Assembly: GCA_043816965.1 (NCBI GenBank)
Contig: JBDRHK010000015.1
Location: 1-64,000 of the forward strand
Direction: 5' to 3'
DNA: 64,000 nt
Source: Candidatus Iainarchaeum sp.
GTDB taxonomy: Archaea > Iainarchaeota > Iainarchaeia > Iainarchaeales > JAFCCJ01
A program made the position numbers. Position 1 is the first letter of the stretch. Each line of letters opens with the position of its first letter. Shown piece after piece: positions 24,001-30,000 of the stretch.

Positions 24001-27000
24001 TATGGTTTCCGATAGTGTTTTTCCTGATGGCAGTACTTGCATTCTATGTTGCAATCTTCTGGCAGAACTGCAATTTGCTAACTCTTTCCCCGAGTGTAGG
24101 CGGGGAGGTGATACCCTTTACCGGTTGCAGTTCTGAAGCTGCCGGAAAGCTGCTCCCTGCACTGACTGCGCAATTTGCCGAAAACCTTAAGGAATCAGCA
24201 TTCCTCATATTTGTCCTTGCCGGAATTCTTGGCTGGGCGTCAAAAATGGTACTTGAGAAAATTGAGGAAGAGCCAGAGGATTAATTTATAACCCTCATGC
24301 AGCCAGATTTTTTGGGTAAAATATGAAATTCCATGTAGAGGGCTATGGCTGCTCACTTAACAGGTCTGATACCGAAAAGATACGCCATTTCCTGTCCAAG
24401 CACAACTGCACAATTTACCCACTTGATAAGGCTGAAACAATAATAATCAACACCTGTGCGGTGAAGGAACCTACCGAATTCAAGATGCTGAACCGCATAA
24501 GGGAACTGAAGAAAATAAGCGATTCAAATAATGCCGAACTTATTGTGTTTGGCTGCCTTGCAGGAATGAATGCCGCAAAGGTGATGGAAATATCGAAGGA
24601 TATTATCCTAATTCCCCCAAGCCTGGAAGAGCTCGCCAGGCATTTAGGCATTGAAGAAACTGAATTCTCGCCTGCAATTGAAAGCATAAGGGAGAATGAA
24701 TTTGTTGCAATAATCCCCATCTCAAGAGGCTGCAGAAACAACTGCAGCTACTGCGGCGTAAAACAGGTCAGGGGAGAACTAAAAAGTTACGGGATAAAAG
24801 AACTTAAGGAGAATTTCACAAAGGAAATTGCAAGGCCTTGCGAGGTCTGGCTTACCGCGCAGGACACCGCAGACTATGGCTTTGATTTGGGAAATTCCCT
24901 TCCTGAATTGCTGGGGCAATTGCTGGAGATTGAGGGAAACTATATGATAAGGATTGGGATGATGAATCCCAAAAATTTGATGCGGATTAAGGACGAGCTG
25001 ATTCCGCTGATGCAGGATGAAAGGGTTTACAAATTCCTCCATATTCCTGTGCAGTCAGGCTCTGACAGGATTCTGAAAGCAATGAAAAGGAATTACATTG
25101 CCGCAGAATTCCTTTCCCTGGCAAAAGAACTCAAGGAAAAAATCCCCGGGCTGAATATTTCGACAGATGTAATCGTTGGCTTTCCCGGGGAAAGCAAAGA
25201 TGATTTCAAAAAATCCGTCGAATTGCTGAAAGAGTTAAAGCCAGGGGTTGTCAACATTTCCCGATATGGGGACAGGCCAAATACTGCTGCGGAAAAGATG
25301 GATGGAAAGATACATGGAAGGGATAAGAAGGCAAGGAGCAGGGAACTTTCCTCCCTTTGCAGGGAGATTTTTCTTGGCGAAAATAAGGCGATGGAGGGAA
25401 AAACCCTTAAAATTTTTGTTTCAGAGAAGGGCCCAAAGGGCGGTTTTGTGGGCAGAAACCTTTCCTACAAGCCGGTTGTAATAGGGAAGGATTTGATGGG
25501 TAAAATGGCAAAAGTGAAGATTTTAAGGGCCCATCCATTTTATCTGGAAGCAATGGCTGAGCTATAAATATTTAATCACTTCCCAATTCAATAATTCAGT
25601 GGTTGGGAATGGTTTTTAGGGAATCTTTGAAGCAATATGTGCAGAACTACAAGACTGCTTTGGGCTTTGCCCTCCTGCTTGTTTTTGTGCTTTTCTTTGT
25701 CCTATCCCAGAATTTCTTTGTTTCATCAGGGTCAATCTTCGCCGATTTCAACATTATCAAGAGCGGAGCAATCGATGCAGTGCTTGCCCTGCTTGCCATT
25801 GCGGTCTTTGAGTTTTTCTATGCGATACTTATTACCCTTGTTGTTTTTGCGGTCAGGAATAACATGAGCAAAGTGAGGGTACAGTATTATCTTTCTGAGA
25901 AAATACAGAAATTCTCCTTCAAACTGTTTATTTTCTTCTTTGCATTTACCCTTGCGGCCCTTGCCCTCCAGTCATTTCTCCCCCTAGTGGGAATACCCAT
26001 CGCGGCCGTTAATCTGCTTTTACTTATTGCATCACTTCTATTAATCTTCTTCCCTCAGGCAGTGGTCATTGACGAATCAGGAATAAGAAGCTCAATAATT
26101 GCAAGTGCGGAATTTCTCATGTCCCACCTTAAGGAATCTGCCCAAATAATTATTGCCGGGGCGCTAATGCTCATTGCATTGGGGATTTTTGAGTTTGCCC
26201 TTGACCAGTTTTTTTTTGCGGGAAATTTCATCACACCCCTGATTTCACTGGTGTTCATAATCCCCTTCCTGGAAATAGTAAAATCGGTTATTTACCTGCA
26301 CAAATTTGAGTTGGTTAAATCCGTTAACAGGGAAATAAAACCAAAAGCGGCACCGGCATCAGTCAATGCCAACTAGGTCTGTTCCACTGTCGATAATTTT
26401 TCCGGCATCTTTCAAATTTCCGGCCCTGGCCAGGCTGAAACATCCCCCACAATCTCCACAGCCCCATCTCTCTGATTCCATCCCGGTTTTTTTAAGGGCT
26501 TCCCCGTTAACTTTCCCAAATCTTCTAATGCCCCCAACATCGCCGAACATGTTGGTATGCATGCCGTTTTTAGAATGCACTAAATCAACAAGCTTCTGGC
26601 GCAGTTCCCTGCAGGATGTTTTCTTTTCCGAAAACTTTTTCAGCGCAAATTCCATGCCATAAAACCCAACAAATGAAACAAGCTCCTTTGCTTCAATTCC
26701 TGCTGAAGGAAGGTAATCCCTCCTGGCGAGATTTTCCTCCTTAATCTTAACAAGCCCGCCAATTCCCTCAATCACTTTGGCGGCATTTTGCAGGAATTCC
26801 GGTTTATCCTGTGAATTTTCCGCAATCTTAATCAGATTGACCCCACAATTAAGCAGCACCCCTGAAGCATTCTCCAGAACAAAGCCATTGCAGTTTCTTG
26901 TCCGGTCCTTTTTCGCATTCAGAAGGCTTACTCCTGATAATTTGATGTCCCCATCAATCAGCTTGGTTTTGAATTTACTGTCGACAGAAAGGCATGCCTG

Positions 27001-30000
27001 GAGAAATGGATTTTTATTCGCACGCAAAAATTCATTTGCAAAGAAAAACGCATCCTCTCTTGAGGAATTAAAGTCCAGGAGATGGTCGGGAATAAATAGG
27101 CCAAGATTGATGGTTGCGGGGGAATTTCCCGAATAGGAGGAGTCCAGCAATTTGGAGAAAAGCCTGACAATCCTTTCCTTATTTTTCCTGCTTTTTCCGG
27201 AAAGGAATTTTGATAAATATATATTTGGGGATGCGATAGACGGCGCGAATGAAAGCACCGGTTCAAGCTTATTGATTTTCGCATTCAGCCCTATAAGCAT
27301 TTCCTCAAAGCCATCCTCATTTTCAGGCTCAATGCAATATGCCAAAGGCCTTGTTGAAAAATCAGCCACATTTGAGATATGGATTACTGACTCAAAGTGC
27401 AGGGCCCTCATATCTTCAGGAATCACCTCAAGAAAATTGTACTCCCTCAGTATTTCCCTCTCGTTTGTGAGCTTGCCAATCCTGTTTTTCACATCATGCA
27501 CTGGCAGGCCAAGGCGGGTATACTGCCTGTGCGCAATCTCATGCCCATACTCCAGAAGCTTAACATCAGCCATCTCCCTTATGAGTGAGGTGGTAATAAA
27601 GCCAATGCTTAGGTCCTTTATTTTGTCCTCAACCTCAGAACTTATTTTCTCAGCAACAGTTCTTGAAAGGCTTGTTTCCCGAAGAAGGGATTTGGTTATG
27701 TTTCCCCTGTCAAATGCCTCCTTACTCTCCCCTGAAGTGTAAACCTGGAGCCGTTCAAAAGAGCTATAGACCTTTGCAGCTTCAGGATTCAGTTCCCACA
27801 ATATCTCGAGAGCCAGTTTCCTGAGTTCTTTCTCCCCGCCCCCAATGCCTGAAATCTCCTTGATAACCTTCATTGCCTCGAATTTAGTTGCACCAGCCTC
27901 CCGGCATTCATTGGCAATCTTACCTATAGTTTCCTTTACTGGCTTTGATTTTACTTTCATTTATTTAACTGTATTTGCAACAATTCTTAACTATTGCCAG
28001 GCAAAAGTGGATTTTCTTTGAAAAGCAAACTTTTTATTTGTTTTCGCTTAGAATTACTAATGGTGCTAATTTGGAAATAACCCTTGATAAGACCGACCAT
28101 AAGATTATTCAGTGCCTTCTTGAGGATGGGCGCATGAGTTTCAGCAGCATAGCAAAAGACGTCCAGCTTACCGATGTTGCAATAAAGAAAAGGGTTGAAA
28201 GGCTTAAGAGAAAGGGCGTGATAAATTCAATAACTGCCGATTTGAACCTCAAGGTTTTGGGCTATGAAAATCCGATTTTTGTGCAAATCCGCTCCGAAAT
28301 GGGCAAGACAAAAAATTTGGTTAAGAGGCTTTCTGATTTTGATTATGTGATAGAACTCTACCAAATTCTGGGCGAGTATAATCTCCTTGCGAAGTTAGTG
28401 CTTCCGGACATTGATTCTGCCGAGAAATTCATTAACCAGCTTGGGGTTTTGGATGGGATTCTTGACATAAAAACCCAGATGATTCTTAGCGAACTGAAGA
28501 AAAGCAATTCTCTCCCCATATTCTCCTTCCAGAAAAAACTTTGATTTCAATTACGCTTATGGCGCCCTGTATTTTTATGCTTTTTGATGTAAGAAAATCT
28601 AATGTTGATTTGTTGATGGGTTTTTGTTGGTGAGCTGACTTGAGAATAATAATCGCAGAAAAGGCAATAGCAGGAAGGAGAATTGCGTCAATTCTGGCGG
28701 GAAAAGATGTCCCATCCACCATGCTGGGCAATGCACAGGTTTTCAGTTTTGGGTCTGGTGAGGGCAAAAATATGGTAATTCCCCTGCGCGGCCATATATC
28801 TGATGTTGAATTCCCAAAGCAGTACAGCTACTGGTTAGGCACTGATTTGAAAAAACTGGTTGATGCAGATATAGAGTACATTGGCAAGGAAGTGGCAATA
28901 ATTTCGGCGCTCAAAGCGGCGGCCAAGGATGCAGACAGTGTTGTAATCGCTACTGATGCCGATAGGGAAGGGGAAGCTATTGGTGTTGAGGCACTGAATT
29001 ATATGAAAGAGACAAATCCGAAAATCAAGGTTGAGAGGGCATATTTTTCTGCAATAACCCCTAAAGACATTGAAGTTGCGTTTTCCAAATTTTCAAAGGT
29101 TGATTATAATTATGCAGATTCCGCAGATTCAAGGAGGGAAATTGACCTCATCTGGGGTGCTGTTCTAACAAGGTTCCTTTCGCTCATTTCAGGGAGGTTA
29201 GGGAAAGAATTCCTTTCGGCAGGAAGGGTTCAGACACCGACACTTGCAATAATAGTTGACAGGGAGAATGAAAGAAGGGCATTCAAATCAAAAAAATACT
29301 GGGATCTGAATGCGGAGTTTGAAAAGGATTCCAAAAAATTCGAGGCCCAGCATAAGGAAGGGAAGTTTTGGGATAAGGAAAAGGCTGAAAAGGCATTTGA
29401 GAAAGGCGGGAAGAAAGGAAAGGTCATAAATGCCATAAAGAAGAAAAGGATACTGCAAAGGCCAATCCCCTTTAACACAACAGGCTTTCTTCGTGCGGCA
29501 ACGGCTATCGGCTACACCGCAGGAGAGGCAATGAGTATAGCGGAATCCCTGTACCAGTCAGGCTATACCTCATATCCAAGAACAGACAACAGCGTCTATT
29601 CCCCCACGCTAGACCTGAGAGAAATACTCAATGAACTTTCCAAAATTCCTGAATTTTCACTGATGACTGGGAAACTCCTCGCAATGCCAAAGTTTGACCC
29701 ATCAAAAGGAAAGGAATCCAAGGATCATCCACCCATACACCCGGTTACCGCCGCACCAAAAGCAAAGATCAGTGAAAAGCAGTGGAAAATCTATGAGCTC
29801 ATATGCAGGAGGTTTTTCGCTACCTTATGGGAGGAGGCTATAACAAACAATGTTACTGTTGAAATTGACCTGAATTCAGAGATTTACCTTGCCCATGGCC
29901 AGGTGCTGGAGAAAGCCGGCTGGAAAGAATTTTATCCCTACTCCACCTTGAAAGAGGTTCATCTCCCTGAGATGGAGAAGGGCGATGAAGTTGACCTTGT

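Follow-up and report, generated by a model that had tools for sequence, protein, structure and literature searches.

The window analysed here is a stretch of 64,000 nucleotides from the archaeon Candidatus Iainarchaeum sp. It contains the gene g195, which is divided from a divergent gene for an Lrp/AsnC regulator, Lrp1, by a short promoter region with two predicted operator boxes (Table 1).

Table 1. Features of the g195-Lrp1 locus (positions in the window)
Feature	Position	Strand	Basis or remark
Membrane-protein gene, convergent neighbour	25603..26376	+	Context only; marks the site of clean g195 absence elsewhere
g195, pseudo-NrdD (catalytically dead class III RNR)	26359..27960	-	Intact ORF, 533 aa; fold and motif comparison
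g195 residues 165-533, RNR barrel, active site and specificity hairpin eroded	26362..27468	-	Stops short of the Zn/glycyl-radical domain
g195 residues 71-153, inner ATP-cone, non-canonical V-x-T-S hairpin, best-conserved part	27502..27750	-	Conservation, structure match, dN/dS
g195 residues 8-70, what is left of the outer ATP-cone (helices, no beta-cap)	27751..27939	-	Profile alignment to cone 1 of tandem-cone NrdD
Common divergent promoter region, 110 bp	27961..28070		Between g195 and Lrp1
Predicted Lrp operator box 1, 15-bp imperfect palindrome NTTHG-N5-CDAAN	28016..28030		Score 12.5; abuts TATA-like run 28031-28038
Predicted Lrp operator box 2	28047..28061		Score 11.4; 31 bp (three helical turns) from box 1
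Lrp1, Lrp/AsnC regulator, 157 aa, recognition helix [ST]DVA[IV][KH]KR; predicted RNR-gene regulator	28071..28544	+	TTG start at 28071
topA, downstream of Lrp1	28640..30781	+	Context only; often parted from Lrp1 by insertions

As proposed in the preliminary description, the predicted structure of g195 (pLDDT 91.2) has the fold of a class III ribonucleotide reductase (RNR), the anaerobic type of the enzyme that supplies DNA precursors. Its best Foldseek match is the NrdD of T. maritima (E 6.8e-13, TM 0.50, 11% identity), and the VIA comparison recovers the class III fold over 372 residues (Z 25.7, rmsd 3.6). The 10-stranded beta/alpha RNR barrel is present according to structure and profile comparison. 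Sequence searches of the PDB with g195 gave no significant match. Pfam NRDD is matched by 34/75 members of the g195 family (E<=0.01), and g195 itself, which had been described as having no Pfam row, matches the Pfam ATP-cone at E 1.9e-5 with 25.5 bits, just under the cut-off of 25.8. When comparing g195 to the archaeal tandem-cone NrdD (Methanococcus vannielii cluster, P0178/P0218; 4COJ, 8P28, 9D3X, 1H7B), we find a common barrel fold (Z 25.7), homology over g195 residues 17 to 489 (HHalign probability 99.8), and in both an inner cone of the VRTS type and the structural Asn before helix F (N375). In contrast to tandem-cone NrdD, g195 lacks the thiyl Cys, the beta-A Cys, HxHD, the NxN flap, the specificity hairpin, the Zn site and the glycyl-radical loop, and its outer cone is headless.

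Motifs were counted over an alignment of 75 g195 homologues. The glycyl-radical motif R[IV]xGY occurs in 0/75 members, and the same holds for the thiyl Cys of the finger loop ([GC]CR; MGCR or xCCR), for which we follow the definition in section 10 of bioRxiv 2022.04.23.489257. Among the class III motifs described in PMC11226230 (beta-A Cys, HxHD and NxN flap), the triphosphate motif HxH[DE] is found in 0/75 members, the beta-A Cys is kept in just 4/75, and the flap is deleted, its segment having 18 residues compared to 33. The finger loop is shortened to a median of 26 residues compared to 42, and the specificity segment has 14 residues compared to 34. A glycyl-radical domain with its Zn site is absent both from g195 in cis and from the adjacent ORFs. 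A missing RVxGY alone proves nothing, because the working NrdD of this genome (on contig C9) is split and carries its glycyl-radical loop on a separate 51-aa ORF; many NrdDs of the order are split in this way, and in the live ones the large subunit lacks RVxGY. By these computations, g195 is a catalytically dead class III RNR paralog that would be incapable of RNR chemistry, and the earlier statement that it has neither a glycyl-radical loop nor an invariant Cys holds across the 75 aligned members.

ATP cones had been proposed in the plural; we find one whole cone (residues ~71-153), the second being a headless remnant (residues 8-70). The structure search with residues 8-70 returned no ATP-cone, its best match being to helical bundles (Z 7.0). 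Residues ~70-155 have the cone fold of a beta-cap and a helical bundle (Z 12.4, rmsd 2.0, 86 residues), and the inner cone matches the cones of NrdB, NrdR and NrdD at Z 12.4, 12.2 and 11.7, respectively. The protein is under purifying selection that is strongest in the cones, with dN/dS of 0.02-0.10 for the inner cone. As described previously, the invariant residues lie in the ATP-cone half: the alignment has 65 columns with a conservation of >=90%, of which 54 fall within residues 8-153, and in the inner cone 41/83 columns are conserved at this level. The family retains the Glu, the Ile and the helix-4 Tyr/Arg of the cone, and, as mapped by alignment, the canonical hairpin Lys-Arg and the helix-1 Lys are replaced by T75 (72/75), S76 (72/75) and N87 (74/75). 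Lys, Arg and Lys are described as the phosphate-binding ligands of canonical ATP-cones (PMC12662201), and inner cones of tandem arrays have been reported without ligand binding (bioRxiv 2022.04.23.489257). No nucleotide site is demonstrable in g195, because the Lys/Arg ligands are missing from the cone and neither the substrate site nor the specificity site remains. Of the nucleotide-sensing pseudo-enzyme suggested earlier, the dead enzyme is retained, whereas (d)NTP/ATP sensing is predicted only.

Lrp1 matches PF13404 and PF01037 above the cut-off, that is, an AsnC-type wHTH and a RAM domain. The closest structure is PH1519 (E 1e-23); in the comparison that bears on amino-acid effector binding, Lrp1 reads G-E-Y-N where PH1519 has G-D-Y-D. 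The wHTH and RAM architecture resembles that of archaeal Lrp/AsnC regulators (FL11/PH1519, LrpA, Ptr2, Ss-LrpB), and the predicted boxes fit the Lrp pattern of an AT-centred imperfect palindrome with helical spacing, as laid out in PMC2995911. Lrp1 differs from the known archaeal Lrps in its distinct recognition helix and in being linked to a pseudo-enzyme instead of amino-acid metabolism genes. The word 'ribonucleotide' is absent from the main text of that 2010 Lrp review (PMC2995911).

Within the order Iainarchaeales, g195 is carried by 74/151 genomes and has been cleanly lost in many lineages; a 100-aa ORF at the g195 site of locus L149 is not a remnant of it. The divergent pairing with Lrp1 was found in 49/49 unique loci of the order with upstream DNA. 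The head-to-head arrangement described earlier for Iainarchaeales thus holds, but topA, named as its neighbour, adjoins Lrp1 in only 18/31 long loci, and the family extends beyond the order. The tie to the Lrp is stronger than first shown. Outside the order, 32/37 scorable HTH-less dead NrdDs directly face an Lrp whose recognition helix is that of Lrp1, and three more are tied via an operon of an Lrp, a class I-II RNR and the dead nrdD. In the comparison sets, such an Lrp faces 2/42 live-type and 0/6 HTH-fused NrdDs. The Lrp1-type recognition helix is present in 63/65 linked or orthologous Lrps compared to 0/15 others; that the Lrps form one clade has a support of just 78 in their tree. Judged from these sequences, the tie of g195 to its Lrp exceeds the synteny of the surrounding block. 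Lrp1 itself is present in 147/151 genomes, including all families without g195, and its own promoter boxes are often intact there. It therefore does not need g195, and co-loss of the two genes is rejected. In family f3, Lrp1 lies close to RNR genes, but cdc48 and other genes stand in between, and we do not count this as evidence.

To search for operator boxes, we used a matrix learned from the Lrp/g195 intergenic DNA of g195 carriers, with thresholds picked after the scores had been seen. A two-site score >=16 was reached by the RNR upstream regions of 29/42 g195 carriers and 8/42 non-carriers and by 0/255 control upstreams, where the genomes counted are related, not independent, and families f3, f28 and f30 dominate the non-carriers. 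Sites are spaced by whole helical turns in 18/24 and 12/16 carriers compared to 7/32 non-carriers. Phased box pairs precede the working RNR operon irrespective of RNR class. In this genome, the nrdD upstream region, at 5714-5960 of contig C9, ranks second among 616 operon-first upstream regions, and 4/37 very AT-rich upstreams likewise reach 16. The matrix gave p<=0.05 in 15/15 intergenic regions of L172-L187, L206, L215 and L218 and in 0/20 of loci L155-L171, L228 and L222-L225. Some non-carriers have strong boxes (G024 25.0, G064 24.7, G131 23.5).

We lean slightly towards the explanation that RNR expression is regulated by Lrp1 and g195 as a two-gene unit, and the two probably make up a so far undescribed system by which archaea control the supply of DNA precursors. 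In the open-access literature searched, we found no paper on RNR transcription control in these archaea and none, PMC4390871 included, on a system of the Lrp1/g195 type. Lrp1 would, very probably, bind the boxes as an oligomer and control the transcription of the nrd genes and of its own gene. More tentatively, g195 may be a co-regulator that uses the conserved cone region to dock on Lrp1 and passes on the (d)NTP status. In this role it would continue a regulatory function of an ancestral tandem-cone NrdD whose catalytic work went to another RNR. Counting against this explanation are the persistence of Lrp1 without g195, the missing nucleotide ligands of the cone and the limits of the box matrix given above.

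We consider it rather improbable that Lrp1 alone regulates RNR and that g195 is a member of its regulon, serving as a decoy, a scaffold or a (d)ATP-responsive binder of the live RNR or of another DNA-precursor enzyme. The predicted boxes do sit within g195's own promoter, Lrp1 persists without g195, and some lineages co-transcribe a dead nrdD with a live RNR or nrdG (L173, L179, L186, L187, L206, L215). However, g195 is equally conserved whether it coexists with the TM-type NrdD or with class I/II enzymes, which have no obvious common docking surface. Furthermore, RNR promoters carry a box pair far less often in genomes without g195, as expected if g195 acts on the regulator. We also consider it rather improbable that g195 took up an unrelated job and that its adjacency to Lrp1 is a relic of an ancestral Lrp-nrdD layout, held by the common promoter in a stable block. 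A block of ~18 kb is indeed syntenic across the order, with the membrane gene adjoining g195 in 31/34 loci. Live nrdD genes also face an Lrp1-type Lrp (L177, L185), thus the two genes could be neighbours by descent from an ancestral Lrp-nrdD pair, which weakens the two-gene explanation as well, and both the clean losses of g195 and its diverged barrel (31-42% identity, with new conserved motifs) would fit such a history. Against this, the two genes stay paired in many unrelated gene contexts and with dead NrdDs of several apparent origins, the constraint is centred on the ancestral cone region, and the boxes at RNR promoters track the presence of g195.

That g195 is still a radical enzyme, borrowing a separate glycyl-radical peptide in trans, is very improbable and largely refuted by its distribution. 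The separate 51-aa ORF of this genome and the common split NrdDs of the order could supply such a peptide, and one barrel column, A349 in g195, has a Cys in 35/75 members, which had been taken as a possible remnant of the thiyl site. This column, however, lies where strand beta-E ends, the finger loop has no conserved Cys column, and the beta-A Cys and HxHD are lost as described above. No NrdD was found in 32/74 g195 carriers, 28 of which have a class I/II large subunit, and no NrdG in 4/4 tested carriers of this kind. The presence of g195 in these 32 genomes means that a radical in trans does not explain it.

As a two-gene regulator, Lrp1 and g195 would be the functional counterpart of NrdR in bacteria. 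According to bioRxiv 2025.03.28.645925, Archaea have no NrdR, and NrdR controls RNR operons of any class via two boxes spaced by whole turns of the helix. In our genomes, NrdR-type domains occur in 6/77 non-carriers and 0/74 g195 carriers, and TIGR00244 (NrdR) has no match in this genome. The likeness, which lies in the predicted class-independent RNR control, the paired boxes and the cone match (Z 12.2), is one of function and not of membership. In contrast to NrdR, g195 has no Zn ribbon (no N-terminal CxxC pair) and no other DNA-binding domain; no HTH family was matched by g195 or any of the 75 members (E<=0.01), and DNA binding would fall to the separate Lrp. In addition, the box differs, and g195 carries a whole dead barrel.

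The pair may likewise be the split counterpart of fusions of a wHTH (DUF7347), an ATP-cone and a dead NrdD, which occur in Promethearchaeota (source names) and in Bathyarchaeota and Nitrososphaerota (Atlas taxa) and for which we found no publication. A fused wHTH was found in 29/68 scanned distant relatives. The fused forms resemble g195 in the dead class III scaffold and the same inner cone, and they adjoin RNR genes, with 6/6 directly upstream of a live nrdD. Unlike g195, they carry their own DNA-binding head (DUF7347/ArsR wHTH), mostly keep the Zn domain and have no divergent Lrp (0/6). A first FastTree grouped most dead NrdD forms, whereas the IQ-TREE quick tree places the fused forms on a separate branch and needs at least four changes. 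A stand-alone DUF7347 partner at 39445-40158 of the window was rejected, as the weak match (E 5e-4) is an ordinary ArsR-like membrane regulator.

A wider reading, which we put forward as a possibility somewhat short of even, is that Archaea have their own NrdR substitute with a reductase polypeptide as the sensor. The ancestral tandem-cone NrdD would have moonlighted as an Lrp co-regulator, and a dead copy would have been kept at each RNR displacement, either as a separate Lrp partner (in Iainarchaeota, other DPANN and, by source names, Hydrothermarchaeota) or fused to a wHTH elsewhere in archaea. In this wider reading, the V-x-T-S cone would serve as a site of a new kind, either for a nucleotide or for docking on the Lrp. 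If Lrp1 and g195 do act as a two-gene regulator, a dead class III RNR joins the known pseudo-enzymes, and the Lrp family gains an input other than amino acids. With a candidate transcription factor, its predicted operator and a pseudo-enzyme partner named, the system lends itself to in vitro work, as both proteins are small and soluble and the DNA measures 110 bp. Lastly, our results call for caution in annotation: databases label some dead relatives 'anaerobic ribonucleoside-triphosphate reductase', and the live split NrdDs of the order can be misjudged from the large subunit, where RVxGY is missing.

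The 533-aa gene g195 is a real, selected pseudo-RNR. A protein search recovered 78 family members including the query, most of the named ones assigned to 'Ca. Diapherotrites' or 'archaeon', and 75 of these were aligned after exclusion of three fragments. Structurally, the predicted model (pLDDT 91.2) is most similar to class III RNRs, with a Foldseek E of 6.8e-13 and a VIA Z of 25.7 (rmsd 3.6 across 372 residues). In addition, residues 17-489 align to a Methanococcus-type tandem-cone NrdD with a probability of 99.8 in a profile comparison. These matches confirm the class III RNR paralogy proposed in the preliminary description.

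We find that g195 is catalytically dead and not an NrdD. The absence of the glycyl-radical motif RVxGY, previously taken as a sign of inactivity, is not decisive because the working NrdD on contig C9 of this genome also lacks it. There, the glycyl-radical loop forms a separate 51-aa ORF directly past the stop, followed by nrdG, and enzymes split in this way are common across the order Iainarchaeales. Judged from the alignments, the decisive losses are instead those of the finger-loop motif [GC]CR (0/75 members), HxH[DE] (0/75), the beta-A Cys (retained in 4/75), the specificity hairpin and the NxN flap. In a 91-row alignment, dead and live enzymes have median lengths of 26 vs 42 residues for the finger loop, 14 vs 34 for the hairpin segment and 18 vs 33 for the flap segment. 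The roles of these motifs are treated in parts of PMC11226230, PMC12662201 and bioRxiv 2022.04.23.489257 (section 10). A partly conserved Cys column (35/75), earlier suspected to be a remnant of the thiyl site, aligns at the end of beta-E, 18 residues ahead of the live enzyme's thiyl Cys. Within residues 350-374, some Cys occurs in 32/75 members, never gathered in one column. In the working NrdD on C9, the Zn motif seems to be divided between the large subunit and the 51-aa ORF; many genomes in the order have separate radical ORFs of 50-60 aa.

Orthologue-level matches to g195 occur in 74 of the 151 genomes of the order (carriers); seven further weak matches proved to be real NrdDs. In 32 of the 74 carriers no class III NrdD was found, and 28 of these have a class I/II large subunit. 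NrdG was also missing in the four NrdD-less carriers tested, whose genomes are 92-99% complete. As such genomes keep g195, the gene does not depend on the class III system, and a radical domain acting in trans, a caveat raised earlier, does not account for its presence. Some members of family f3 have, behind an NrdD gene, another, divergent RNR-like gene whose class I/II matches are weaker (E 1e-39 to 1e-57).

Columns conserved in 90% of rows or more make up 41/83 of the inner ATP cone (residues 71-153), 13/63 of the outer remnant (8-70) and 11/369 of the barrel. Compared with the nearest relative, both cone parts show a dN/dS of 0.10 and the barrel one of 0.23. By these sequence measures, g195 is under selection, chiefly in the cones. 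Of the ATP cones described before, the inner one stands: its model, folded alone, matches NrdB, NrdR and NrdD cones (Z 11.7-12.4). The outer one does not, as its beta-cap is missing. The inner cone has V-x-T-S at the canonical V-x-K-R position and Asn in place of the helix-1 Lys, and the inner cones in tandem arrays reportedly bind no ligand in P. aeruginosa NrdA (bioRxiv 2022.04.23.489257). Nucleotide sensing by g195 is therefore only plausible, and the conserved cone surface could instead serve for docking. Small ATP-cone ORFs standing alone, with open frames of about 95-200 aa (L281-L286 and others), were also seen in ~20 genomes across the order; several of these genomes have class I/II RNR. 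Bacterial ESM Atlas clusters (mostly Planctomycetota), named hypothetical and with ATP-cone and partial NRDD matches only, are possible dead NrdDs outside Archaea.

The Lrp/AsnC gene Lrp1 faces g195 in 49/52 unique loci, with the other three truncated by contig ends, and in 36/36 long loci holding both genes. The head-to-head arrangement is thus kept across the order, as first described. This adjacency alone is weak evidence because the whole block is syntenic, with a convergent membrane gene adjoining g195 in 31/34 loci. Lrp1 is present in 147/151 genomes. In g195-less genomes the membrane gene directly abuts Lrp1 (13/19 first-sampled, 8/9 later-sampled), hence g195 is cleanly missing there. 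The second Lrp-like gene of the window lacks the recognition helix shared by Lrp1; it is kept in 26 of the 38 long loci, and some g195-less lineages have lost it.

Outside the order, we scanned metagenomes with more distant dead relatives and analysed the best 80 of 549 confirmed loci, many of them near-copies (about 20 clusters at 90% identity). Dead NrdDs without an HTH occur in 39 of these, two without upstream DNA. Among the 37 scorable, 32 directly face an Lrp, three are part of class I/II RNR operons facing an Lrp, one lies behind a contig-cut RNR and one shows none of these. Live-type nrdD faces an Lrp in only 2/42 loci (about seven with little upstream DNA), and wHTH-fused dead copies in 0/6, all six lying just upstream of live nrdD. 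The neighbourhoods of these outside loci differ from the Iainarchaeales block. One recognition-helix motif is common to 63/65 linked or orthologous Lrps vs 0/15 other Lrps, and a quick tree places the former on one side of a branch (support 78). Source names of close Lrp1 relatives include Ca. Hydrothermarchaeota and Micrarchaeota; no cultured species is named among the best 120. We found no published description of this pairing in searches of open-access papers.

The g195 family forms a single clade (support 98) in a quick IQ-TREE tree, in which HTH-less dead NrdDs require at least four state changes on well-supported branches, several being nested among live tandem-cone enzymes. A FastTree tree grouped most of them together. 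A repeated origin thus appears likely, with the two trees differing. At L173, L174, L179 and L215 an nrdG-like gene still follows the dead nrdD, which suggests recent inactivation inside an RNR operon.

The g195/Lrp1 intergenic DNA contains two 15-bp imperfect palindromes (boxes), 31 bp apart, on either side of a TATA-like run. Scored with a matrix derived from 43 other loci, g195 ranks first and nrdD second among 616 operon-first genes of this genome. The best RNR promoter per genome reaches a two-site score of 16 in 29/42 carriers vs 8/42 non-carriers, and of 14 in 36/42 vs 12/42, with three loci excluded (one mis-fetched, two having too little DNA upstream). In these comparisons the matrix was trained on carriers, the thresholds were fixed post hoc and kin are non-independent. 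A score of 16 was reached by 0/255 other upstreams from the order and 0/63 AT-rich upstreams; 4/37 of this genome's most AT-rich upstreams also reach it. Four carriers scored as misses have a thioredoxin gene preceding the RNR gene, and their operon starts score 17.1-19.5 (post hoc). The spacing of the two best sites fits 10.4-bp multiples in 18/24 and 12/16 carriers vs 7/32 non-carriers; Lrps use AT-centred palindromic sites in helical phase, according to a part of PMC2995911. Among intergenic regions, the matrix is also significant in all 15 from loci L172-L187, L206, L215 and L218 (15/15) and in 0/20 of the others. We infer that Lrp1 binds the boxes, and it is very probably a regulator of RNR genes. 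Five single boxes away from RNR genes are possibly further regulon members or chance.

NrdR-type Zn-ribbon/cone matches occur in 6/77 non-carriers vs 0/74 carriers, representing at most three independent events, and the three of these non-carriers with a scored RNR upstream have no boxes (6.7, 6.7, 7.0). This distribution points the same way as the operator contrast. g195 is not an NrdR; the pair would work like NrdR split in two. A co-regulator (g195) with its regulator (Lrp1) is the best account of the pair, and one we hold slightly more probable than its negation. A role of g195 at the protein level seems rather unlikely, and so, to the same degree, does an unrelated role. Part of bioRxiv 2025.03.28.645925 describes NrdR as absent from Archaea. 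Two g195-less genomes of family f2 carry an NrdR Zn-ribbon head fused N-terminally to live NrdD, and in family f31 a stand-alone bacterial-type NrdR above the curated cut-off lies just upstream of an RNR gene.

Coordinates of the features discussed (G000, this genome; other G numbers, other genomes; C, contigs; L, loci)
Feature	Position	Strand	Remarks
g195 ORF	window 26359-27960	(-)	intact, 533 aa
Lrp1 (Lrp/AsnC)	window, start 28071	opposite to g195	110 bp gap; topA next after Lrp1
Second, divergent Lrp-like gene	window 30948-31553		between topA and NFACT gene
819-aa ORF	window 44648-47107		N-terminal endonuclease-like region, putative DRG/Obg-type GTPase (by eye)
Working NrdD	G000:C9 2267-5713 (L005)		1096-aa subunit, intein-like insert, SMCCR loop
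Predicted boxes upstream of nrdD	G000:C9 5764, 5837		73 bp apart
Single boxes	G000: C74 19955, C4 5601, C94 1934, C54 4518, C5 8255		scores 13.6-14.4
NrdD and 683-aa RNR-like gene	G125:C1 233900-239800 (L150)		also G074, G147, G119, G131
NrdR Zn-ribbon-NrdD fusions	G001:C4 85182 onward (L280); G082:C29 34452 onward (L275, L257)
Stand-alone NrdR, f31	G061:C129, G098:C50, G090:C12, G047:C7 (L276-L279)
Two full g195-Lrp1 pairs in one bin	G026: C1 403-2052; C39 1190-2836		duplication or mixed bin
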